The notes beneath the pieces were generated by a model, which did not search any database, was not told the origin of the DNA, and saw only the letters and a program-made list of their open reading frames with translations. A stretch of DNA of 64,000 bases from an uncultured Bacillota bacterium. Its GTDB lineage: Bacteria; Sysuimicrobiota; Sysuimicrobiia; Sysuimicrobiales; Segetimicrobiaceae. Where the stretch lies: the NCBI GenBank assembly GCA_963804645.1, contig CAWDRG010000005.1, positions 296,089 to 360,088 of the forward strand, written 5' to 3'. Positions 2,950 to 16,306 of the stretch are shown here, one piece after another; within the stretch, counting starts at the first letter, position 1, and every line of letters starts with the position of its first letter. The position numbers and the translations under genes were made by a program.

Positions 2950-5190
2950 CTACTTGGCCTGGCCGCCGGGATAGATCGCGCGCATCGAGCTCAGGTACAG
3001 GACGCCGTGCGGAGTCTTGGTCGGATCCGTCACCACGACATAAAACGACGACCAGCTGATCGGGAACGCCAGCCCGGGAGGAAACGCCGCGGTGACCGAG
3101 CGCCACCCCGTCCAGTCGACGCGCTGGGCCAGCGTCACCGTCCCCTTCTCGCCGTTCTCCTGGTCGAACACGCCGCGCAGCCACGCGCCGCTGCCGTCCC
3201 CGTAGACCCACACGCTGACGCCCGATGGCTCCCCGACGAGCGGAATCTGCGTCTGCACGTACGCCGCGCGCGTCCCGGTGCCGTCGAGGCGGTAGGTCAG
3301 CGCGACCGACGGGTGGCCGTCGTGGCTCGGATCGGAGACGCGCGCGACGTCGCCGGTGACGGAGTCGGGATAGCCGCGGAAGGTCCACGCCCCGACGTCG
3401 AACTGGTCCAGGTACCGAGCCGTGCTGCCGATCGCGACGCGTGCCTGTCCGAACGTGCCTCCCAGGGTCGCGGTGACCGTGCCGTTGCCGGCCGCGTCGC
3501 CGGGCACAAACGACCCCGACGGCGAGATGGTGCCGAGCGTCGGCGGCGCGACGGTCCACTGCGCGATGCCGCTCGGCACGATCACCGGCCGCCCGGTGCG
3601 GTCCACCGCGCGGACCGTGAACTGCGCCGGCTCCCCAGGCGCCACGGTCAGGGTCGCGGGGCTGACCACCAGCTTGGCCAGCTGGGTCACGACCGAGACC
3701 GGCGCGGTGCCCGACGCGGCGCCGCTCTGGACCGTCATCGCGCCGGATCCCGCGGACGTCGATGCGGTCACCGTACCGTCCGGTCCGACCGTGACCAGCC
3801 CGGGCGGGGACGTCACCGCCTGCAGCGGATCCGTCAGGGTCGTCGGGTTGCCCTGCGCGTCGACGCCGATCACCGAGAGCGCCGTGGATGCGCCCGCGAA
3901 CAGCTCGAAGGGCTGCCCGGCGTTCACCAGGAGGCGCGCGGGCGGCCCCGGCACCGCGGAGCTGTACACCAGCACCGCGTCGCCGACCGGGCGCTCCTTG
4001 CCGTCCGACGGTGAGTTGACGACCGACGGCGCGGCGGCGCCCGGCAGGCGCACAACCATCGTCGCCGAGCCTCCGCTGTCGAACGCCATCGCCTCGGACG
4101 CGCCCAGCCGCTGCATGTAGGCCGCCAGCTGAGGGCGGGTCAGCCCGATGCTCAGGGCGGGCTGGCGGCCGTCGACCTCGACAAACGTCAGGGTGCGCCC
4201 GTCCGGCGCGATGCCGACGGCGATCACCGGATAGCGGTGGCTGCTCTCTGACGGCGACGGCGGGTCGGAGTCCGTCGCGATCTGTCCGTTCGCCACCAGC
4301 AGCGGCCCGCCGCCGACCGCGAGCTGCGCATCGTGCCAGTCCGGATCGGTCGTCAGCGCCAGCTGGACCGGCATCCCGGTCGTGAGCCGGTTGAGCCAGT
4401 CCGCCCCCGCGCCCCGTCCGACGAGGATCACATCGTCGTTGGGAAACGGCACGTAGAACGGCTGCTGCGGCCACAGCTGCTTCACGAAGGCGTGCCCCTG
4501 ATCATCGGGCGGCGTGAGCTCCGCGACGACCTGGCGGGTCGCCGCATCGGGCTGCGGCGCCCCGTACCCGCGGATGTTGGAGAGCAGGACGATCCCGTTC
4601 GGCGACAGGCCGCTGTTGTACCCGTCGAGCGGCCGCGTCTCCCCGGTCGCGGTCAGCGTCACCGTGCCGGTCCACCGGTACCGGATGATGCGCGCGGCGC
4701 CGTCCCGACCGATGACGAGCGCGATCCAGCGCCACGGGCTGCGGAGCAGCTGCCCGTTCTGGATCACCAGATTCAGCGGAATCCCCGATTCGTGGATGTC
4801 GAAGTAGTCGGCGTTGATCCCCGCGATCGCCCCGGTGCGGAGCGCCATCGAGGAGACCGTCTCGTCGTCGCTCATCAGGCGGTCGCGCGCGATCCCGACG
4901 CCGAGGTGGATCGTCGGATTGCTGAGGTCGACCTGCATCTGATGCAGGTCGAGGGGGCCGTCGGCGGTGGCCAGGGTCAGATGGCGGTACTGAATGCCGG
5001 ACGCGACCGGAAGATCGACCACAGCGGTCGCGAGGATGGAGGGCCAGCCGCCCGGGGGGCCCTGGGCGAACACGCCCGGGCTGAGCAGCGACAGCACGAG
5101 GAACAACGCCACGCCGAACACGAACCTGCGACAATGGTACTTCCGTAGAGTCATGCGATGCCGTCCGCTGCTGCGTCGTACGAGAGTCAT
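2950..5190 (-). CDS. Secreted phosphodiester glycosidase (NAGPA-like) protein with Ig-like and C-terminal carbohydrate-binding-like domains
   Basis: Motifs AGINADYF, AVGGGPLLV, VDGRQPALSIG, AMAFDSGGSATM and NSPSDGKERPV; signal peptide. Confidence 0.85.
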   Translation of the reverse strand: MTLVRRSSGRHRMTLRKYHCRRFVFGVALFLVLSLLSPGVFAQGPPGGWPSILATAVVDLPVASGIQYRHLTLATADGPLDLHQMQVDLSNPTIHLGVGIARDRLMSDDETVSSMALRTGAIAGINADYFDIHESGIPLNLVIQNGQLLRSPWRWIALVIGRDGAARIIRYRWTGTVTLTATGETRPLDGYNSGLSPNGIVLLSNIRGYGAPQPDAATRQVVAELTPPDDQGHAFVKQLWPQQPFYVPFPNDDVILVGRGAGADWLNRLTTGMPVQLALTTDPDWHDAQLAVGGGPLLVANGQIATDSDPPSPSESSHRYPVIAVGIAPDGRTLTFVEVDGRQPALSIGLTRPQLAAYMQRLGASEAMAFDSGGSATMVVRLPGAAAPSVVNSPSDGKERPVGDAVLVYSSAVPGPPARLLVNAGQPFELFAGASTALSVIGVDAQGNPTTLTDPLQAVTSPPGLVTVGPDGTVTASTSAGSGAMTVQSGAASGTAPVSVVTQLAKLVVSPATLTVAPGEPAQFTVRAVDRTGRPVIVPSGIAQWTVAPPTLGTISPSGSFVPGDAAGNGTVTATLGGTFGQARVAIGSTARYLDQFDVGAWTFRGYPDSVTGDVARVSDPSHDGHPSVALTYRLDGTGTRAAYVQTQIPLVGEPSGVSVWVYGDGSGAWLRGVFDQENGEKGTVTLAQRVDWTGWRSVTAAFPPGLAFPISWSSFYVVVTDPTKTPHGVLYLSSMRAIYPGGQAK

Positions 5191-5344
5191 TCGCCTCCGG
5201 ATCGCAACGCCCTGCCGGCGCGCCGCGCGCCCCCTAGTACTACAAAGTCACGATTCTGGCAGGATTTTGCCCGCATGTGCCGAACAGCGGTAGTCGCGTA
5301 CGCATACATCGCACCTCTTGTCGCAGCAGACGTCGTCGTAGCAG

Positions 5345-6564
5345 GTGTCGCCGATGGCCAATGCGCCGCCTTTTGCCGATCCCGATCTGCGTCAGCGGTT
5401 GATCGAGTACCTCACGGCCGTCCTGCCGGAGTTGGGCCGCAAAGATCGCCGACCGTGGGCGCAAGCGTATGTGCGCGGCTTGCTGCTGGAAGGCGAGCGG
5501 AAATCGATCGAACCCATGGCCAAGCGCTTGCCGGACGGCAATGTGCAAGCCATGCAGCATTTCATTGGAAAGAGCCCGTGGCCGTATGAGCCGGTCCGCC
5601 GGCGGTTGGCTGGTGTGTTGTGCGCGGAAATGGGCTCCGGGCTGTGGATCGTCGATGACACCGGGTTTCCCAAGCAGGGCAAGCATTCCGTCGGGGTGGC
5701 GCGGCAGTACTCGGGCACGTTGGGCAAGGTGGCCAACTGCCAAATCGCGGTCAGCCTGCACCATGCCACGACGCTGGCGAGTCTGCCCATCGACTGGGCG
5801 TTGTACCTGCCGGAAGCCTGGGCCGCGGATCGCGCGCGCTGCGCCCGCGCGGGCGTGCGGCGGCGTCCGTGGACTACCGCCCCAAATGGCGGTTGGCGCT
5901 CGAGATGATCGATCACGCTCGACAGTGGGGCCTGGGGGACCAACGCGTCGTCGCCGATGCTGGCTATGGCACCATCGCCGATTTCCGTGCGGGCTTGCGG
6001 GAGCGGCAGTTGCCCTATGCCGTGGGCGTCGAATCCGGCACGGGCGTGTGGATGCGGTATCCGCGACGTCGGCGGCACCCACCCACCGTGCGCGGCCGGC
6101 CGCGTACGCGCTGGGACTACGGGGGCCAGCGGCCGCCCAGCGTCCTCGAGGTGGCGCGCGCGTTGCCAAAAGCCGCTTTTCATACTGTGACGTGGCGCGA
6201 AGGGAGCCAGGGCCAGCTCCGGTCGCGCTTCGCGCACGTCCGCGTCTGACCGTCCCACGGCTTTCATGAGGGCAAGCCGCCGGAGGCCGAACAATGGCTG
6301 CTCATCGAGTGGCCGGCCGACGCCGCCGAGCCGACCAAATACTGGTTCGTCACCGGCCCGCGGCGGCTGTCGCTGTTGCCACTGGTGCGCTGGGCGAAGG
6401 CGCGCTGGCGAATCGAGCAAGATTATGAACAGTTGAAGGGCGAACTGGGCCTCGACCACTTCGAAGGACGCCGCTGGCTGGGCTGGCATCATCACGTGAC
6501 GATGACCACAATGGCGTACGGGTTTCTCGTGCGCGAACGGCTTCGTCCCCTCGGGAGTAAAAAA
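5345..6564 (+). pseudogene. IS701-family transposase, main part (frameshift about 5865, TGA at 6247-6249, interrupted at the A-run)
   Basis: Motifs RKSIEPMA, IVDDTGFPKQGKHSVGVARQYSGTLGKVANCQ, VVADAGYG, RWRIEQDYEQLKGELGLDHFEGR and WHHH. Confidence 0.93.
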
Positions 6565-6567
6565 GGT

Positions 6568-9500
6568 TCATCCGGCATTTTCGGGAATTCCAGGAAACGC
6601 GGCCATGATCTTCAGGAAGAAGTAGCCATCGTCTCGGTAGCCGTACCCCATGCGCTTGAGGACCTTGATCTTGTGGTGGGTAGAGGACGGCCTCGGATCG
6701 ACCCTTGCGCCGTCCTCCCCCCGCAGAACCCGGCGTGCAGGTTTCCCGCACCGGGCTCCCCAGAGCGACATTCACGCCTCGGCCTCGTCAGACCGTCGGA
6801 TGTAGAGTCTTCGGGCGTGGCAGTTCAAACCACGAGCGGCTCCTGAGGTAGCTCCAGAACAACCGGTGCCATTGGCCGCGCCGACGCAACGTTCTTAGCC
6901 ACTGGAGCTGGACCTCATGACAGACCCAGTCCAACTTCCGCTCGCAGTGGTGTAGGGCGAAGTACTGGTAAAATCCCCGCAGCATCGTCGTAAGGTGAGC
7001 CTGTTGCGCCCGGCGATTCCAGTGCATATGGCTCCTGAGCCATTCATGGGTGCGATCCAGAAACGTCCTGCAGCTGTCGTGTGCCGGAATGCGCACCACG
7101 GCGAACTTGCCCCGCCGGTCCCTACCGCACACGTGCTTGAAGCCCAGAAATACGAACGTGCCTGGCTTCTCTCCATGTGCGGCGGCCCGCTTTCGGGCCT
7201 CTCGCCCAAACAGCAGTAGGCGCGTCTTCTCTGGTTTTAACTCCAGGCCGAACTTCTGCATCCGCTCCGCCAGTTCGCGGCCGAAGGCGTTCGCTTCCGC
7301 CTGATGCTCGAAACATACCACGAAGTCGTCCACAAACCGAATCAGGTGAGCGGCCCCTTGACAGCTCCGCTTGAACCGTCGCTCGAACCAGAGGTCGAGG
7401 ACGTGGTGCAAGTAGAGATTGGCGAGCACGGGGCTGATCGGATTGCCTTGCGACACGCCCTCCCTGTTTCGGACGACAACTCCGTCGTGCATCACCCCGG
7501 CCCTGAGCCACTTGCCAATGAGCCTCAGGATTACGGGATCGGCGATGCGATGGGCCACCATCTTCCGTAACCAGTCGTGATTGATGCGTGTGAAGTACCC
7601 GCAAATATCCGTCTCGAAGACGTACTGTGCTTTCCCCGCAATCAGATGGCCGCGAAGATCTCGCAATGCCTGGTGCGGGTTACGCCCGGGCCGGTATCCG
7701 TATGAGCACTCCACGAAGTCCTGCTCGTAGATGGCGCTGAGAATCCGCGCCACTGCGCGCTGCAGTAACCGGTCTTCCACCGTGGGAATGCCGATCGGGC
7801 GCATAGCCGACGTGTCCCCAGGTTTGGGGATGTCTACCCGTCGCACCGGTGGAGCCTGATACCGCCCTGCTTTCAGTCGTTCCCAGAGATCGACGACCCG
7901 TATCTCCAGATCGCGCTCGAACTGCGCGCATGTCTCTCCATCCACTCCGCTGGCACCCCGCCGGTTCATCTGCTGCCAAGTTTCTTTCAGAAACTCTGGC
8001 GTCAGAATGTGCGCCAGCGACGTGAAGCGGCACTTCGGGTCTGCCTTGGCTTTGATCGCTATCCCGGCCAGTCCGGTGGTCACCCTGATCCTCCCTCTGA
8101 AGGTGGAGGGGATGTTTCCCCGACCAAGGTCGTACGCTCTGCCCCGCCGCTTCCCCATGTACGCGGCTCTCCCGCGCTCCGAGTACTACCAGCGGGTCCG
8201 ACTTCCACCGCGGCGTTTGCCTCTCTTCGGTCGAACCATCTCGATCGGCATACTCGATCCACTCGATCAAGACCGCGGTGGATCTCCCAGGTCCCTCGAC
8301 GCGTCCGTCTCCGTCCGTGCCGTGCTCTCAGACCCCGCCGGGGTCTCCGGCATCCTCGCCCTAACGGATGCGTACTGTTGCCTTCCACGATAACAACCGT
8401 GTCGGCCCCCGGATTAGGAAGTCACGAGGCTCAATCGCTTCCTTTGCAGTACGGCCCGGACGTCGCCCTGTCTACGCTTAGCCCATGTCGTTACCTCCAT
8501 GAGCCCAAGACTCGGTTCCCGGTGGGTGGCTGGCCCTTGCCGGGGCGGGAATTGCACCCGCTGGACGCGCCAGATTTGTCCTGGCGCGCTGTTGATGCCC
8601 TCGAGGAGGCTGGTGTGTAACGGATAGCGACAGTGCGCGATGATCCCGGGGAGCCGCATCTTGAGATGGCGGGCAAACGTCTTGAGGGGTTCAATGCGAC
8701 TGCGGATGGCACGGTGGTACCAGTCGGTGAAGAAGCGGGTGGCGGCGCCAGGATAGGTATAGTCCCACATCTGCTTGAGATCATCCTTCAGCACGTAGAC
8801 GGCCGCAAGCCGCCGGTTGGCTGCCAAGAGGTCCTGGAGTCGTACGCGATCCTCCGGTTTGACGTTCTCACGATTGCGCAAGAGGAGCCACCGCGCGCCT
8901 TTGATCACCTTGCGGGCTTCTTTGTCGCGCCGCACGCGATTGGCTTCGTCCACGCGCACCCGGTCAATGACTTCGCGCCCGTACTTGGCGACCACGTGGA
9001 AGAGGTCATAGACAAGGACCGCGTGCGGACAATGGGCGCGCACTTCTTCTTCGTAGGCCGTGTTCATATCCATCACCACCGCCTGCAGACGCTTGCAGCC
9101 CTCGCCACCTAACAGCGCGAAGAAAGGACGGACGTCGTCGCGACTCCGGCCTTCGCCGACCCAGAGCACGCGTTTGCGCCGGGGTTCGACCACCACCGTG
9201 GCGTAGCGGTGGCCCTTTCGCAGGGCGAATTCATCCATCGCAATCGTTGTCACGTTGGACAGGTCCACCGGGAGCAACTGCTCTGCCAACGCGGCCACGT
9301 CCAGGTTTTTCACGGTGTCCCAGTCGAGGCCGTAGAACTCTGCCACGTGCTTCACCGGCAGGATGCGGCAGAGCCGGACCACGCTCTCCGCCAGGCGCTT
9401 GGTCACCCGGTCCCAGGCCGACAGCCAGGACAGGGCCTCGATTTTGGGGCCGCACGTGGGACAGGCAACGCGGTAGCGCGGCACCCATACGTGAGTCTCG

Positions 9501-9721
9501 GCGTCGAGCAGCGGCAGATCCCGGATGCAGCGGACCACCATCTCATGCGCCTTCGCCGTCTCTTGGCCGCACCCGGAGCACCGGAAGGTCCGCTTCTCGC
9601 GGGCCAGCGTGATCTCCACCCGCGGTTTGCCGGCTCCCGTCGTTGGTTCGATGCGCTCCACCAGCTTCACCCGATAGCATTCCCACCCGACCAGCACATT
9701 GGTAGACTGATCATGAGGCAA
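6568..9721 (-). CDS. ISL3 transposase, join(8590..9721, 6568..6674); 412 aa after intron removal
   Basis: Zinc finger CSGCG/CPTCG, IAMDEFALRKGHRY, VVMDM and YDLFHVV. The splice junction restores LEGINNKIKVLKRMGYGYRD in frame (1239 nt). Confidence 0.9.
6675..8589 (-). mobile_element. Group II intron 1 (1915 nt) in the ISL3 transposase gene
   Basis: 5' end GCGCGCCAGG; domain V GAGCCCGGTGCGGGAAACCTGCACGCCGGGTTC; domain VI ending CTACCCACC. Removal restores the exon frame. Confidence 0.9.
6788..8158 (-). CDS. ltrA: Group II intron reverse transcriptase/maturase, no endonuclease domain
   Basis: RT motifs ASGVDG, RPIGIPTVEDR, SYGYRPGR, GVSQGNPISPVLANLYL and FVDD, plus an X/thumb region. No C-terminal HNH. 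The true start is probably downstream of 8158 (VTTGLAGIA). Confidence 0.93.
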   Translation of the reverse strand: MGKRRGRAYDLGRGNIPSTFRGRIRVTTGLAGIAIKAKADPKCRFTSLAHILTPEFLKETWQQMNRRGASGVDGETCAQFERDLEIRVVDLWERLKAGRYQAPPVRRVDIPKPGDTSAMRPIGIPTVEDRLLQRAVARILSAIYEQDFVECSYGYRPGRNPHQALRDLRGHLIAGKAQYVFETDICGYFTRINHDWLRKMVAHRIADPVILRLIGKWLRAGVMHDGVVVRNREGVSQGNPISPVLANLYLHHVLDLWFERRFKRSCQGAAHLIRFVDDFVVCFEHQAEANAFGRELAERMQKFGLELKPEKTRLLLFGREARKRAAAHGEKPGTFVFLGFKHVCGRDRRGKFAVVRIPAHDSCRTFLDRTHEWLRSHMHWNRRAQQAHLTTMLRGFYQYFALHHCERKLDWVCHEVQLQWLRTLRRRGQWHRLFWSYLRSRSWFELPRPKTLHPTV

Positions 9722-10017
9722 GGTGCTCCCCCTTCCCTGAAGCGCCGTGTTCGCAGCACGTGCTCAAGGATAGGGGTGTGGTACCTTGCCTTCAACCTAT
9801 ACGGCTATCCCGGTTTTGCCTGAAGAACCGTAAAAAAACCATAATGGCAAAAGTAGCATCGGCGGCATGTGCGACCACTGATGTCGAGGATTCATCCTTA
9901 GGCATTCTGAAGATCAACGACGGCGAAGTGACGCGTCAGGCACTCGAGCACAGCAGTGATCATTGTACGCAAATCAGTTCGAGTCGTGAACGCGATAGAG
10001 AGACGCGTCGTGGAAGA

Positions 10018-10254
10018 CTATAGGGGCTTGCTCGGGGCGGAGGTTTGCCAGAGCTGTTCCAGTCGGGTGAGGAATGCCTCAGGCGCTCTTCGGTATCGCG
10101 CTCTCTGACGTCGAGGTTCCTGACTCGCGGCCCAACGTTGCATCTCCGTCCGGTATTGGTCGGTGGGAACGTGAGCAAACCATTCGATCAGGACGTCTGG
10201 AGGCAGATCGACTGCATATACCGCCAATGCTCCGTACCGCATAATGTAGCCCTC
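10018..10254 (-). pseudogene. C-terminal piece of the same transposase, displaced by the cargo element
   Basis: Removing the insert gives the in-frame RKSW(D/E)GYIMRYGALAVY...RARYRRAPEAFLTRLEQLWQTSAPSKPL*. Confidence 0.8.
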
Positions 10255-10291
10255 GGTAATGGTAGCGTATGAAACGCTACCACTACCGAGG
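10251..10291. repeat. Terminal palindrome, left (18-bp arms, one mismatch, 5-nt spacer)
   Basis: CCTCGGTAATGGTAGCGT-ATGAA-ACGCTACCACTACCGAGG. Confidence 0.9.
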
Positions 10292-10700
10292 TCTGGGTGG
10301 TGGGAGCGGCAGCGGTGGTGGCACCACGCCCGGCGGAGGCAGTCCCGGGGGTGGGAGTCCCACTCCGGGTGCGAACTCCGGTCCTGGAAGCAGCGGTGGG
10401 AACGGGGGAAACGAGCTCCGTGGCCCCCACTTCTCCGGCCAACACTGTCATTACTATATGGCCCGTAACTCCGGCGCCCGCGCCGACGACGCCGGCGGTC
10501 CCGGCAGTGCCTGCTGCACCGACACCGGTTGCGGCGACACCGGCAGTGGGCCGACACCCGCGAGGCCTCCAGTGGCGCCGGCGGCCGCTCCTGCGCCAGC
10601 GGCTCCGCAGCGTGCTGGGTTCGGCCCCCCCGTGCTCGGAGGTAGCGGGCCGACTGTGGTACTCGGCGCCCCGCGTCAGCACGGCGCCGGAACATGCCGC
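10290..10700 (+). pseudogene. Gly/Ser- then Pro/Ala/Thr-rich low-complexity coding fragment (cargo)
   Basis: GGGSGSGGGTTPGGGSPGGGSPTPG and VTPAPAPTTPAVPAVPAAPTP tracts in adjacent frames; no clear start. Confidence 0.35.
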
Positions 10701-11066
10701 TCTCAGGGCGGTTCAAGGACAGCCGACCAAGTTACCATTTGGGGGCATGTCGGAAACAAAGCGCTCCCTAAATCACGCTCGGACGCTGGATTGGAACGCT
10801 CATGGCTTCAATGGGGGCGATTTTGTTCGGGTGGAAGGTCGAGTAGTTGGAGAGCGCCTGGCACTTTCAGTTCGCGGTGCGGCCGGAGAATCGGGATACC
10901 GCTGCTCATCTGGGGCGCCGGTACGGGTGGTGCGCCTGTCTTGCAAAAAGCGGATTCCAGCGTCGATTCTGAGGTTACGAGCCGAACGACGGCACGGTGC
11001 CGGACATCCCGGCAGCGAGACGTGCGTCACGCGGTGGGACGGCCCGCTGAGCCCGTGACAACGCAT

Positions 11067-11096
11067 CGGGGAGCGAGTGCGAACCCTCGCTCCCCG
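11067..11096. terminator. Hairpin downstream of the PEP-CTERM gene, probable terminator
   Basis: CGGGGAGCGAG-N8-CTCGCTCCCCG, about 50 nt after the stop. Confidence 0.55.
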
Positions 11097-11146
11097 TCAA
11101 TTTGAAGAGACTTGGTCGCGTTCCTTAACGCTTTACCGGTCTCCGA

Positions 11147-11791
11147 TTAGCGCCTCACCTTGCGGCGAAGCAGACCGGCGGCGCCGACCAGTCCGAAGGC
11201 GAACATCGAGAGCGAACTCGGTTCCGGTACGGGATTAGGGGCGATCTGGCCGGCTGAGATCTGTCCCTCCAGATCAAACCATGCGGTGCCAGTGTTCGCC
11301 AAACCGCTGCTGCCTCCCACGAGAACGGTGCCGCTGTCCAGGCTCGGGCTGATGTTAGCAAAAGTGGCGCTCGCGCTCTCGTAGTCATTTGGGTCGGTAG
11401 ATGTGAAGGAGCCGCCGCACTGAGCGGCCGTTGGGCTGGGAGAATAAGTGCCGATGCATGCACCGTCGCCGTCAAAGCCAAATACTCCGCTACCCACGCC
11501 GCCGGTGATCGCAACGCTCTTCAGTGTGCCACCCGACGAATTCAGAACGCCGATCAAGGTGTCTTCGATGCCGTCGAAGGGCCCCTGATCAGGCGATGCC
11601 GTGGTGACATTAAACCCCGTGGCTACGTCTGAACTGTTGACCGATGTAACCGTAAGCAGCAGTTCGCATCCATTAGTGTCATTACCGACAGGCGGGCACT
11701 CGGTAAAGGAGGCGGCATACACTGCGGGGGTGACTGCCCAGAGAAGCACCGCTACCGCAGTCAGCGCAATACCCCATCTTATCGTCCTCAT
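11147..11791 (-). CDS. PEP-CTERM (exosortase-sorted) surface protein
   Basis: Signal peptide MRTIRWGIALTAVAVLLWA...VYA; C-terminus PVPEPSSLSMFAFGLVGAAGLLRRKVRR; AAGGAGGT SD. Confidence 0.93.
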   Translation of the reverse strand: MRTIRWGIALTAVAVLLWAVTPAVYAASFTECPPVGNDTNGCELLLTVTSVNSSDVATGFNVTTASPDQGPFDGIEDTLIGVLNSSGGTLKSVAITGGVGSGVFGFDGDGACIGTYSPSPTAAQCGGSFTSTDPNDYESASATFANISPSLDSGTVLVGGSSGLANTGTAWFDLEGQISAGQIAPNPVPEPSSLSMFAFGLVGAAGLLRRKVRR

Positions 11792-12247
11792 GCACTTACC
11801 TCCTTGATCGCTGTGGTCGCTGTGGCATTGCTGGGTGGGCTACGGCATCCCCCCTCTCGTTCCGGGGCGACGAGGATCGCGTCTGCGGAGCGCTGACGCC
11901 CTCGGCGCGGAGTCTGACCTCGGAATGGGGCTCGCTGTCCGAACCCATCCTCCATCGAACTCGAATGTGCTTTCCCGTCCCACGGGGGAAATCTTTGTAT
12001 CACTTGAATGAAACAGGCCACAAAAACGAACGACCGCTGGTCGGTGCGGGTTACGAACGTGGCTGCCGAGGCGATTCTGATTACTTCCTTTGAAGGAGGC
12101 TTTGGAAGGAGGCTTTCTGGACCGGGGCGGCAGCAGTCCGGCGCGCACGTCATCCCGCGAGATGCACAGCTTCGCCCCGCGGCGTCGGTTCACTCGATTC
12201 GGTCCGCGCGGATGGCCGAGCCCAGCGCCGGGCCTGGTCGAGGCTCT

Positions 12248-12756
12248 CTAAACGGGCGGTCCGAAGCGGGTGCGCGAGCGTCGCAGCGCGGCACGCAGCC
12301 CCGGGCGGGCCAACTGAAGCGGCGCGCGACCCACCGCGTATCGTACCGTGAGCGGCGGCCGGCGGTGTTTGGTTGCGATCAGGCTTGCCACCTCGGCCCA
12401 GATCGCGCTCAGCAATCCGTTCACGGCGTGTCGGCGGGGCGCCGTGCGCCGATGCGCCAACGCGTGACGGAGCGCGCCGCGGAGCGCTTCGGTGCTCGTG
12501 GTGGGAGCGTCGGACGCGACCGCCACTCGGCGCGCCGCCCAGGCCAAGGCATCTCGCACCGTGTCCTGCCGCACGATGTGCGGGCATCGGGCGGCCGCGC
12601 CGATCATCTGGTCGGGAGCGAAAGCCTCGTCGGAGGCGTGCGCGAGCTGCGTGACGGTGAGCGCCTCGACGAGGGCACGAGCGTCCTCTCTCAGCGGACC
12701 GGTGGCAGCGGTCTGGGGGAGCTGCGTCAGGGCCTTGTCAATGATTAGCCGAACGG
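12248..12756 (-). other. Possible truncated hypothetical ORF (cargo), open from the right palindrome
   Basis: ORF 12248..12787 has its start inside the terminal repeat; helical, Ala-rich, family not recognised. Confidence 0.3.
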
Positions 12757-12791
12757 GGTAGTGGTAGCGTTCCCCAAACGCTACCACTACC
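12757..12791. repeat. Terminal palindrome, right (perfect 15-bp arms, 5-nt spacer)
   Basis: GGTAGTGGTAGCGTT-CCCCA-AACGCTACCACTACC. Confidence 0.92.
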
Positions 12792-13760
12792 TAGCCATCC
12801 CATGACTTGCGCCCCGTGGTTCGGCGGTGTGCGCTCTTGGCGTGGCGCAAGAACCGCTCCAGATCGTTGTTCGTCCGCGGGATCTCGGGGTGCAGAAAAC
12901 AGGTGAACAGCGTGTCGCCGAATCCCTGGGTGTACTTTTGGAAGGATTCCGCGAACAGTTCGTGCGCTGGCTGAGTCACCGCGGCCTGTGCGACCGCGGC
13001 CATGAGCGTGCGCACTCCCATCTTCGCCTGCGCCGCAGCATCATGGGGAAGCACGCCAGGGTATTTCTCTGGATCGATGACCCGAGCGAGACCCAGTAAC
13101 CACGTGTGTTGCTGCTTGAGCGTGGCGTAGTCAGCGCCGTAGATCTGGTGGCGAGTTGCGATGTGGGTCAGGGTCCGCATCATGGGTACGGGCCGGACCG
13201 CAAAGCACCGCTGCAGGGAGGCGTAGATACGCTCCAGATTCTCATAGGCGCGGATGCCCCCGGGTGCAAGTGGCGGCAGTCCGTTGGATCCCGTCGAGGG
13301 AGAGCACCAGCCCGCCGTTCTGCTCGATTTGGCGGCGCACCGCCTCGACTTGCTGGCCGGCCGTGCACCCGAGAAGTGCGAAGTACGCTTCGTAGAGGCC
13401 CTGGACGTGGCGCGCACTGATGATGACCCCGCGCTGGCCGAGCTCGGCATGGATCTCAGCCCGCGTGCAGTGGTCCACCGTCCGGAGGCGCCCCACCGTG
13501 ACCAGCACGTCCATGCCGTACGTCGAGCCCTTGAGGCTCAAGCCTTCGGCGACGGCGGAGCGGTACACGCGGCGGTCGCAAGCGGCAGTCCAGCATCGAT
13601 ACCCGAGGCTCCCGGCCCAGAGCACTTCGGACAGGCCGATGATATGTTTGCGCCAGACGGGGTGACTGTACACCAGAGGCGCCCCGCACACCAGACAGGT
13701 CCGGCATTCGGGGCGGAAGTAGACGCGCCGGGGAGCCGCAAACACACGCGCGCACCTCAC
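12792..13760 (-). pseudogene. Transposase of the 22-bp-TIR element, N-terminal and central part (apparent internal deletion with frameshift near 13283)
   Basis: CLVCG...CWTAAC zinc finger, YGMDVL and LVLSLDGIQ, then an abrupt frame switch to GLPPLAPGG...HPEIPRTNNDLERFLRHAKSAHRRTTGRKSWDG. Confidence 0.8.
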
Positions 13761-14146
13761 GGGCGCTTGCGGATCACCTCCGCAGGATCGAGTTGGGCGG
13801 CTTGCCGAAGGCGCTCCAAGAGACCTTGGAGCTCGACGTCGAGCGCGCGCAGGTGTCGAGCATGCGCCCGCCATCGCCGATACGCGCGGGCCGCTGTGCT
13901 GGCCGGACCCGCCTTGGTCGGCGCCACGGGGAACACGTGCGGCGTGCCCGCACGAAACACTGAGAGGCACCAATAGGGGCCGTGTTTCTTCCCCCGCATG
14001 CAGCGGCACCCCGGCTTCCCGCACACCCGGTAGCGCTTGAACAAAGAGCCGGTCAGAGTCGGCCCGATCGCTAACGCCTCCTCCAAGACAGCGGTTCTCA
14101 GGCGGTTCACCGCTTGCACCTTGGTGCGCAGGGCCTTGGGACCCAT
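13757..14146 (-). CDS. DUF6788-like small Cys/His protein, transposase-associated
   Basis: Motif GSLFKRYRVCGKPGCRCMRGKKHGPYW. GGAGGTG SD upstream. The stop overlaps the GTG of the next gene. Confidence 0.75.
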   Translation of the reverse strand: MGPKALRTKVQAVNRLRTAVLEEALAIGPTLTGSLFKRYRVCGKPGCRCMRGKKHGPYWCLSVFRAGTPHVFPVAPTKAGPASTAARAYRRWRAHARHLRALDVELQGLLERLRQAAQLDPAEVIRKRP

Positions 14147-14304
14147 CCGCCACCTCCGTCTTCTCTATCTGCCACTAGTATTCCTTTTCATAATGCCAGA
14201 TCTCAAACCAAAAAGAAAGGAGCATGCGAAGGAGCGCCGCCGAGCACTCCAGTCACCTGCTCCAGTGCCTGTCTATGGCCGTGATGCTACTTTTGCCATT
14301 ATGG

Positions 14305-14448: not shown

Positions 14449-16306
14449 GTCGAGTAGGACCAGCGATCGCTCGCTGGGACCCCTCTGCCGAACGGCTCGT
14501 ACGGATCTCCCGTAAGCCGCTCTACCCCATGCCGACTCGTGAGTCATCAGGAATATATCCGAAGAGAGTGGAGCCCCAGACGGCGGTAGAAGAATGTTTC
14601 AGAGTATCGCCGCCAGTTCGCCGTGCGCCAGCGTTTGGCCATGAAGGCCCGCAGCCTCCGAAGGATCCAGCGGTCCAGCGGCCTCCCGATCCGTCGCAAG
14701 TCGCCAATCCGGAAGAATCGTCCCCAACCGCGGAGCACTGGATTTAGCAGCGCCACGATCTCGTCCGCCCGACGCGGTTGGTTACGCCGCGTAAGATGAC
14801 GGACCTTGTCCCGGAGCCGCTGTATTGCTCGCGCCCGTGGCTGTAGGTGCAGTCCCTCCTCATCGCGCCAGAAGCGGAATCCAAGGAACTCAAATCCTTC
14901 CGTAATGTGAACGACCCGCGTCTTCGCAGGATGCAGTCGCAGTCCCAACTGCCCCTCCAGAATCTGGTGGACCTGCTCCAAGGCCGCCTCGGCGTCCTCG
15001 CGCGTTCGGCACACGATGACACTGTCATCAGCATACCGGACCGCGCGATGTCCTGCCGCGAGCATCTGATGATCGAAGGTGTTCAGAAACGCATTACTGA
15101 GCAGCGGCGAAACTACACCCCCTTGCGGGGTGCCCGCTACCAGGGTACGCTTCTTGCCCTCCTCCATCACCCCGGCCTGGAGAAACGCCTGCACGAGCCG
15201 GAGAATCCGCCCATCCGCCACCACCTCGGCGACTGCGGCCAGCAGCCGCGCATGGGACGCGGTGTCGAAAAACTGTTCAATATCGATTTCGACAATCCAC
15301 TCGCCCCCGTGATGCAGGCTCGCCATCACATCGCCAATGGCCTGATGCGCTGACCGTCCTGGACGAAACCCGTAACTGGTCTCCGCAAACCGCGGCTCAA
15401 AGTGCGGTTCCAGCCGCAGACGCATCGCCTGCGCCACGACGCGATCTCGTACAGCAGGGATCGCGAGGCCGCGACGACGTCCATCGGGTTTGGGAATGTA
15501 GACGCGACGCCCGGGCTGGGGCACATAGGCATCGTCCTTGAGGGCCGCCTGGAGTCCTTGCAACTCCTCATCCAAGTGTGCCTCAAATGCCTCAAGGCTC
15601 TGACCATCCACGCCCCACGTCCCGTGGTTCGCCTTGACCAGCGTCCAGGCCCGCCGCAGATTCGGCAGGTACCAGACCTTGTCGATGAGCGAGCCGACCT
15701 TGATCGGATGCACGTCCTCCGCCACTCCTCCTCCTTCCTGACCAGAGTCCTGTTGGTCGGGGTCTGCACCGGTCGCGGCTCGGGAGCTGCTCATGACAGA
15801 GATCCCTTACCCCGCGCTCGTCAAGCCGATCCCGCCTTCAGGCCACCAAGCATGGAGCGGGTCCCTTCGCTCTGCCAGGTTTCCCTGACCTCATCGCTAC
15901 GTCTGGACCCGTCCGACTCCTGAACGTGCATCGGGTTGGCTTTTCCCCTTCCGGGTTATACCGTCCCTACCTGTCCGCGCAGGACCGAACCCTACTCGCG
16001 ACAGGACACGCTCAGGCCTCCCCGGGTCATGCTGCTCTCTGTCCCACCATGCTGCCCGCACCCACGACTGATCCCCCCTGGTCTTCTCTGGATGCCCCTT
16101 CCTCCAGTACTAGCAGAGTCGGGCCTCCAGGGGTTCGCGCCGACCGGTTCGCCTGGCTTCGACAGCCTCGGCTGCGGCCTGGTGGTTTGCCTCAGGTCCT
16201 TCAGATTCCGCCTCGCGACGGACACCCTACCCTTTTCGGCTACGGTCCGCATCCAGCTGGACCGGCAGGTCTTTCACCTGCGAGAGAACAGCACTGCCGG
16301 GCACAC
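14449..16306 (-). mobile_element. Group II intron 2 (1858 nt) inserted inside the right terminal IR of the IS701 element
   Basis: 5' end GTGTGCCCGG; domain V GAGCGGCTTACGGGAGATCCGTACGAGCCGTTC; 3' end CCTACTCGAC. Removal restores a perfect 14-bp IR. Confidence 0.93.
14547..15794 (-). CDS. ltrA: Group II intron reverse transcriptase/maturase, no endonuclease domain
   Basis: SLIDKV, GVDG, IPAVRDRV, SYGFRPGRS, GTPQGGVVSPLLSN, YADD and LNPVLRGW. The real start is probably a GTG near 15713-15725. Confidence 0.94.
   Translation of the reverse strand: MSSSRAATGADPDQQDSGQEGGGVAEDVHPIKVGSLIDKVWYLPNLRRAWTLVKANHGTWGVDGQSLEAFEAHLDEELQGLQAALKDDAYVPQPGRRVYIPKPDGRRRGLAIPAVRDRVVAQAMRLRLEPHFEPRFAETSYGFRPGRSAHQAIGDVMASLHHGGEWIVEIDIEQFFDTASHARLLAAVAEVVADGRILRLVQAFLQAGVMEEGKKRTLVAGTPQGGVVSPLLSNAFLNTFDHQMLAAGHRAVRYADDSVIVCRTREDAEAALEQVHQILEGQLGLRLHPAKTRVVHITEGFEFLGFRFWRDEEGLHLQPRARAIQRLRDKVRHLTRRNQPRRADEIVALLNPVLRGWGRFFRIGDLRRIGRPLDRWILRRLRAFMAKRWRTANWRRYSETFFYRRLGLHSLRIYS

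Follow-up and report, generated by a model that had tools for sequence, protein, structure and literature searches.

How does a 2.5-kb block of DNA without a recognisable transposase come to lie between two short palindromes inside the transposase gene of an insertion sequence (IS)? This question is raised by a locus in a 64,000-nucleotide stretch of contig CAWDRG010000005.1, from an uncultured Bacillota bacterium that occurs in peat communities; we refer to the whole of this stretch as the window. The block, here called the insert, occupies positions 10255-12791 (2,537 bp), is bounded to the base by the two palindromes, and interrupts the transposase gene of another mobile element, the outer IS (9839-14304, minus strand), which is its host and is now dead. 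We interpret the insert as a non-autonomous cargo transposon: two micro-units would have enclosed the DNA, and a DDE-type transposase acting in trans would have moved it. This interpretation has, we think, about an even chance of being correct.

The insert divides the outer-IS transposase gene in such a way that the peptides SWDG and YIMRYG are encoded 2.5 kb apart in the window. Seven intact homologues were found, and all five that were fetched read without interruption through ...GRxSW[D/N][G/S]YI[M/V]RYG.... The window gene reaches ...GRKSWDG and then a stop codon (TAG, at 12791-12793) formed at the junction, and YIMRYG... resumes at 10254. Because the intact homologues read through at the point where the window gene breaks, positions 10255-12791 are an insertion. 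On the forward strand, the eight nucleotides to the left of the insert (TAGCCCTC, 10247-10254) and the eight to its right (TAGCCATC, 12792-12799) are identical at seven positions, with a perfect match over the 5 nt TAGCC; the left copy can also be read as the 5-nt TAGCC followed by CTC as three nucleotides of the element. As GGCTA (from the G-Y codons GGC-TAC) stands on both sides of the insert and only once in the intact gene, at least 5 nt of the target were duplicated. By our own arithmetic, the probability of such a flank match by chance is about 1/1024 for five of five positions and about 4e-4 for seven or more of eight. The original, uninterrupted target would read ...ATGTAGCCATCC....

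Both junctions are contained in a metagenome contig (L062) that is 99.4% identical to the window over 3,469 aligned columns, and Logan contigs from two studies cross the junctions without differences (run X1, records 1 and 3; run X2, records 10 and 14). Because these independent assemblies span both junctions, the structure is not an assembly artefact. A diverged Logan contig of run X1 joins 10197 to 12792 in the manner of an empty site; its placement, at 85% likeness, gives weak support. In run X8 the outer IS is covered to 10249 and from 12796 and the cargo was not seen, and as the gap is unbridged this run is not taken as evidence. Two Logan joints (12601>13429 and 13739>12470) were ignored for their short sides or extra letters. 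A further metagenome contig with the insertion (L058) diverges by 11% at 12926-13187 beside nearly identical cargo; its assembly may be a mosaic made up of different IS variants, and it was left aside as evidence.

The two palindromes are variants of one design, and neither is assigned to a strand. The left one (10255-10287, 33 bp) has arms GGTAATGGTAGCGT and ACGCTACCACTACC of 14 nt, with a single A/C mismatch, around the 5-nt loop ATGAA; it can alternatively be read as having a TGA centre with an unpaired A/A beside it. The right one (12757-12791, 35 bp) has fully complementary 15-nt arms, GGTAGTGGTAGCGTT and AACGCTACCACTACC, around the 5-nt loop CCCCA. Together the near-identical palindromes hold four copies of the motif GGTAGTGGTAGCGT, and an inverted-repeat search of the window recovers the same arms for both. 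An earlier note on this DNA had described two palindromes of the same motif at the element ends, in which GCGT and ACGC are separated by 5 nt (left) and 7 nt (right), and both the sequence and the repeat search bear it out. Its span for the element, 10251..12791, is right at the end and wrong at the start, which lies 4 nt outside the palindrome at 10255, and it did not mention the outer IS that encloses the palindromes. It had also allowed that the motif might be a generic repetitive extragenic palindrome (REP) with no link to insertions; we rejected this, as the genome holds only two copies of the palindrome, to which the motif is confined.

This confinement was seen both in the window and in the whole genome. 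In the window, nine matches to the 14-mer were found with three or fewer mismatches: the four with none or one all lie in the two palindromes, and the other five are at chance level (expected 3.6, standard deviation 1.9). Across the organism's own genome assembly (5.3 Mb in 22 contigs, 96.8% complete), 22 matches have two or fewer mismatches, and again the four with none or one are those of the two palindromes; a control with the reversed pattern gave 97 matches. Thirty-three convergent motif pairs (three or fewer mismatches, within 10 kb) occur in the genome, of which five are the element itself and the other 28 lack matching flanks. The 163 perfect palindromes of the genome with arms of at least 12 nt and loops of 3-9 nt gave 16 small families, none with the motif; an identical palindrome pair 4.4 kb apart on contig C9 belongs to a larger gene duplication. 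Folded as DNA single strands, the two ends reach -18.8 and -17.8 kcal/mol, and none of 200 shuffles was as stable for either. GTAG occurs twice in the arms and is base-paired within the stem. A likeness between the arms and the terminal repeat of the outer IS (TAATG...GTAGC) was weak and was dropped, its score being reached in 58 (left arm) and 379 (consensus arm) of 5,000 shuffles each. Inward open reading frames (ORFs) begin inside both palindromes, with ATG at 10269 in the left loop and GTG at 12787 in the right arm, and both encode ...RYHY...; these starts and the shared peptide are probably a by-product of the common repeat, although palindromic units of this kind could supply start codons to truncated genes.

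Five ORFs of the insert were scanned against Pfam and NCBIfam. No transposase, recombinase or HUH domain was found in any of them, and the sole recognised family was PEP-CTERM: the intact cargo gene of the insert (11147-11791, minus strand) encodes a PEP-CTERM sorting-signal protein of 214 aa (PF07589, E 2.2e-6; TIGR02595 above cut-off). Next to the right palindrome lies a 5'-truncated GT2 glycosyltransferase gene (12248-12756, minus strand), of which only the C-terminal domain is present. Its open frame extends to the GTG at 12787 inside the palindrome, giving an ORF of 179 aa (12248-12787) with good periodicity of third-position GC (GC3). A full HMMER search of 1.84 billion representatives with this ORF returned ten proteins at E ≤0.001, of which two represent the ORF itself or a near-identical copy with a frameshift. 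Of the eight others, seven were domain-scanned (the remaining one, of 1,011 aa, was left out), and five of these seven are proteins of about 400 aa whose first half is GT2 (PF00535) and whose last ~165 residues match the ORF, which aligns to residues ~225-396. In the alignment, homology sets in at ORF residues 12-13, at the inner edge of the right palindrome, across which residue 11 lies. The right palindrome therefore splits a glycosyltransferase gene, of which the tail alone travelled with the element.

At the right palindrome, foreign DNA thus meets the inner GG tip with the same exactness with which the target meets the outer CC tip. That the GT2 gene ends exactly at the inner tip suggests that the right palindrome is a complete unit with two tips, and we infer that each palindrome is such a miniature two-ended unit, laid out as a GG tip with the repeat, a centre of 3-5 nt, and the inverted repeat with a CC tip. 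Two micro-units would have stood about 2.5 kb apart in the donor, one of them inside the GT2 gene, and would have bracketed a polysaccharide-type locus. A DDE-type transposase supplied in trans would use the two outermost tips, cut out the whole block, and insert it at a target site cut with a stagger of 8 nt (or 5 nt), leaving the target duplication; DNA between two ISs, or between two MITEs (miniature inverted-repeat transposable elements), moves in a like manner. Since each unit has the repeat in both orientations, the units would be free of orientation, and any pair would present correctly oriented outer tips. The micro-units may have originated as internally collapsed IS copies, of the type left by nearly precise excision of Tn10, or the unit may spread at its present size; the latter is favoured because the left palindrome shares its TGA centre with a solo palindrome in another organism, described next. 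The element appears to be immobile in its present genome, as no partner transposase was found in the assembly.

The solo palindrome lies on an unrelated metagenome contig (L061) and reads GGTAGTGGTAGCGTT-TGA-AACGCTACCAC. Of 29 positions, 27 agree with the left palindrome, those of the centre among them, although the search required only 20, and the solo is intergenic, 9 nt behind a GGDEF gene. On the same contig, at 4465-4502, the right arm stops at ...ACCAC and is followed by a second GGTAGTGGT in direct orientation, a rearranged or nested unit. A further pair of loci, L063 and L064, represents one sequence in both orientations, with 16-nt arms and a G:C to A:T change on both arms; we regard it as a candidate relative, weaker than L061, the one convincing solo. 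The metagenome scan used a strict palindrome pattern. With the likeness of the left copy to L061 (27 of 29 nt, centre included) goes a stronger claim, which we think doubtful: that the 33-35-bp palindrome is a portable, symmetric and orientation-free module of two tips which spreads at its present size between unrelated soil bacteria, and that any two copies could bracket and move the DNA of their host. If true, this would be the smallest functional pair of transposon ends known, and the enzyme would have to cope with a spacing of 3-5 bp between the ends, perhaps by acting on an extruded hairpin or cruciform, and yet stagger its cut of the target; we know of no described family that combines the two.

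Several observations weigh against the interpretation as a captured cargo transposon. The earlier note had proposed a count of solo versus paired palindromes, and this yields solos in metagenome contigs only (L061 and L063/L064), none with a target duplication. These look-alikes stand directly downstream of genes, a placement like that of terminators or REPs. A scan for the 18-nt core in 185,579 species genomes gave 28 loci, none with the full motif on both arms. No second insertion of the element was found, L062 and L058 having the same insertion as the window. An 8-nt duplication requires one later substitution, and a 5-nt duplication leaves three unmatched nucleotides at the left end. On the inner side of the left palindrome there is no recognisable gene, and the gene cut is seen at the right one only. 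A classical DDE transposase would hardly be able to synapse the tips of a single unit, which lie 33 bp from each other, and this is a difficulty for any account of how the micro-units arose. Lastly, the enzyme family that the earlier note had proposed to identify beside such palindromes did not turn up in the own genome or in the scanned collections: no transposase with this repeat at its element ends was found in the genome, at the 28 species-genome loci, on plasmids or in viral contigs, the own-genome search being limited by an assembly that is 96.8% complete and by the frequency with which metagenome-assembled genomes (MAGs) leave repeats unassembled.

Other searches for relatives or a partner enzyme gave little. 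Six loci were found in the scan of viral contigs, all of them chance-like, and blastn against plasmids gave no match. Among the species-genome loci, one from a Chloroflexia MAG (L032) has at 3986-4037 a perfect palindrome of 52 bp, each arm of which contains GGTAGTG-TG-GTAGCGTAG, with seven further arm nucleotides after a 2-nt insertion; it lies in AT-rich intergenic DNA, is single-copy in a 5.5-Mb genome, and may either be distantly related to the motif or match it by chance. Locus L046 has 11 nt of one arm in common with the motif. Both loci are treated as possible chance matches. IS1-type DDE transposases are absent from the own genome, and a fit of the palindrome ends to the IS1 tip 'GGnnnTG' is no more than our assumption. 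The only PF01797 (IS200/IS605-type Y1) gene of the genome lies on contig C1 (60157-60507; locus L075, 1465-1863), and no resemblance to the motif is seen in any of the 18 inverted repeats listed for the 1.6 kb around it. The HUH motif of this gene is H-V-S (PDHVSL) instead of H-x-H, and its product may be inactive.

The earlier note had offered three alternatives for the ends. One of them, that each end is a micro-MITE and that a pair captures the intervening DNA, agrees with our interpretation and is the best supported (by the duplication, the lack of a transposase, the GT2 gene cut at the inner tip and the solo in L061), the cognate enzyme being what was not found. Another was that the ends work as single-stranded hairpins: an HUH enzyme, IS200/IS605-like TnpA or RAYT-like, would excise the block as a single strand and insert it 3' of TAGCC. 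We consider this quite unlikely, and equally so its corollary that the second TAGCC is the element's right-end cleavage site rather than a duplication. The hairpins are indeed very stable, L063 has one compensatory G:C to A:T change, and a formal reading of the 5-nt repeat as target plus right end is possible. According to an excerpt of PMC2817692, REPs usually number more than 100 copies per genome and are extragenic; their conserved GT(A/G)G head is unpaired, and they flank a RAYT gene. As far as that description goes, the palindromes resemble REPs in being short and in containing two GTAG motifs, and the solo look-alikes do so in their position at gene 3' ends and in their lack of a duplication. 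They differ from REPs in that there are two copies in 5.3 Mb, set in a split transposase gene with one abutting a truncated gene, in that GTAG is paired in the stem rather than a free head, and in that no RAYT gene is flanked by the repeat, the sole PF01797 match lying on another contig without the motif around it. Moreover, the flanks match at seven of eight positions, beyond five, and the covariation score of the arms (four sequences, one compensatory pair) is reached by 251 of 500 shuffles. As in IS200/IS605 elements, hairpin-forming sequences are present at both ends; in those elements, however, imperfect hairpins lie 10-19 nt inward of the cleavage sites, whereas the palindromes here are perfect, strand-symmetric and at the very termini, 0-3 nt from the junctions, and the insert carries neither tnpA nor tnpB. 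A further difference is that at least 5 nt of the target are duplicated, which only weakens the case for this family, as it can be re-read in the way just mentioned. The remaining alternative of the earlier note made the palindromes recombinase core sites; in this case a tyrosine or serine enzyme (Xer/pdif-module-like or integron-like) would have moved the block by site-specific recombination, which we reject as hardly credible. Dyad-symmetric arms around a short centre would fit it, but the target had no site, the intact homologues coding through the break, and the centres differ both in sequence (ATGAA and CCCCA) and in length (5 and 7 nt between GCGT and ACGC), which rules out strand exchange between the palindromes. 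In both respects the insert is unlike tyrosine-recombinase modules such as Xer/pdif modules and integron cassettes. Odd-length centres would also misfit the 2-nt stagger of serine recombinases, judging by the established mechanism, and no recombinase was found in the ORFs of the insert or among the scanned ORFs between 6788 and 15794.

Two further explanations retain a transposon with a duplicated target. The insert may be one element, the non-autonomous derivative of a transposon of an undescribed family that has paired, inverted transposase-binding sites at each of its natural ends, which we judge to be unlikely. Arrayed end sites occur at the ends of Tn402, Mu and hAT elements, the two ends here have architecture and arm sequence in common, and one event would suffice for everything, the target duplication and the lack of a transposase included. 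A truncated GT2 gene at the inner tip, however, fits an insertion junction and not the interior of a coherent element, and the small unit is also found alone in L061. Very unlikely, in our view, is that a classical composite transposon with two full-length ISs landed in the outer IS and that each IS then collapsed to a remnant of its two inverted repeats. This would account for tips 33 bp apart without any 33-bp unit having transposed, and there is a precedent in Tn10, an inverted-repeat transposon: Ross, Swan and Kleckner in 1979 and Foster et al. in 1981 are reported to have found that its nearly precise excision leaves a short palindrome of the two outermost ends. That remnant is a laboratory product of a single transposon and keeps its own 9-bp duplication, whereas the two units here end a larger mobile block and a near-identical unit is present in another organism. 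Two independent collapses to nearly equal size would also be needed, L062 already has both short palindromes, and the centre (TGA) and size common to the left palindrome and the unrelated L061 point to a unit inherited at that size.

If the insert is a cargo transposon captured between micro-units, it would work like a MITE-flanked composite or a mobile insertion cassette (MIC). Its flanking units are unusual in their size and symmetry. An excerpt of PMC10969869 (citing Gillings 2009 and Domingues 2011) describes class 1 integrons of Acinetobacter that are bracketed by two identical MITEs, and gives the length of MITEs as typically below 500 bp. To the extent of that account, such composites are like the insert in having cargo without a transposase between two short inverted-repeat elements, moved in trans, with one target duplication. 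The Acinetobacter MITEs are some hundreds of bp long, whereas the units here have 33-35 bp and consist almost solely of the two repeats, with no known cognate transposase and no further copies in the genome. MICs, such as MIC231 of Bacillus cereus, carry passenger genes between inverted repeats of the IS type; they have no transposase of their own and are moved in trans. The insert likewise has passenger DNA without a transposase, a target duplication, and terminal inverted repeats at its exact boundaries, the outer arms GGTAATGGTAGCGT and ACGCTACCACTACC ending at the junctions; unlike in these systems, no cognate autonomous IS with the same repeats was found for it in the genome and the collections searched. 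Moreover, MIC ends are single inverted repeats of a known IS, whereas those of the insert are doubled and palindromic. A limited literature search on MITEs and composite transposons did not find palindromic flanking units of this kind described.

Should this interpretation hold, the DNA needed to mobilise any block of genes can shrink to two palindromes of about 35 bp. Annotation based on genes or ISs would never flag such palindromes, and cargo capture in environmental genomes may for this reason be under-counted. The case comprises one insertion, with one or two solo look-alikes in metagenome contigs and an enzyme that was not found, and it opens no long-standing question. It is also a natural example of a mobile block that landed in another mobile element and killed it, with later events that can be dated in order.

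The killed element, the outer IS, is present as a single copy in the genome. Its terminal inverted repeats (9839-9860 and 14283-14304) are perfect, with 100% complementarity over 22 nt, and are flanked by A-runs that are possibly a 7-8-nt duplication. An accessory DUF6788 ORF (13757-14146, minus strand, 129 aa; PF20586, E 5.9e-18) is followed by the transposase gene, which survives in three pieces on the minus strand. The first (13284-13745) corresponds to residues 1-154 of the 529-aa homologue P0003 (96.8% identity by tblastn), the second (12794-13312) to about residues 278-451, ending in ...GRKSWDG, and the third (10021-10254) to residues 452-528, beginning with YIMRYG... (90.9% identity). 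After the first piece about 123 codons are deleted; the missing stretch lies between LSLDGIQ and GLPPLAPGG, and L062 retains it. The transposase matched no Pfam or NCBIfam model above cut-off; weak matches were to IS66 and Mutator-type families, including an IS66-like C-terminus in the second piece (E 6e-4, below cut-off). The seven full-length relatives in public data have about 509-534 aa, as is always so in this family, which is preceded by a DUF6788 ORF. As the transposase was found in none of 93 other genomes of the phylum, the outer IS was probably acquired horizontally.

The metagenome contig L062 allows these events to be ordered. It has the same insertion in a transposase gene that is otherwise continuous (P0003 residues 164-468 in one alignment), and its sequence to the left of the outer IS corresponds to window positions 5294-6556, with 6556 joined directly to 9830. 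Window positions 6557-9829 (3.3 kb) are thus an extra block that L062 does not have. Since L062 has the insertion without either change, the window lineage lost the ~123 transposase codons and gained the 6557-9829 block later, and the cargo insertion is older and has been stably inherited.

Within the insert, 10288-11146 is a stretch of about 860 bp without a recognisable gene and without strand assignment, partly G-rich and of low complexity; it gave no family and no paralogue, and matched only itself among 5.8 billion proteins. The G+C content of the insert is 65%, against 68.6% for the genome. A donor locus was not found: matches to the GT2 tail within the phylum are 28-40% identical (eight genomes, E up to 5e-4). 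A DNA search in 40 relatives gave no more than matches of 27-101 nt, in five of them (E 1e-4 to 9e-4). The intergenic stretch upstream of the PEP-CTERM gene (11792-12247, no strand) shows a 13-nt tandem-copy polymorphism at 12091 (GAAGGAGGCTTTG), with an extra copy in L062, L058 and the Logan contigs of X1 and X2. The near-identical public protein P0002 (152 aa) shifts after ...ARPGLRA to the frame of the overlapping ORF 12150-12587; because of this switch, the GT2 tail (12248-12587) can be said to vary by frameshift between strains, as expected of a pseudogene.

The region around the outer IS is a pile-up of mobile elements. The 6557-9829 block contains a reverse-transcriptase ORF (6788-8158, PF00078) and an ISL3 transposase gene (8414-9721), and its right end, on the ISL3 side, adjoins the outer IS at 9829. 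On the other side of the outer IS lies a second reverse transcriptase, of the group II intron type with a maturase domain (14547-15794).

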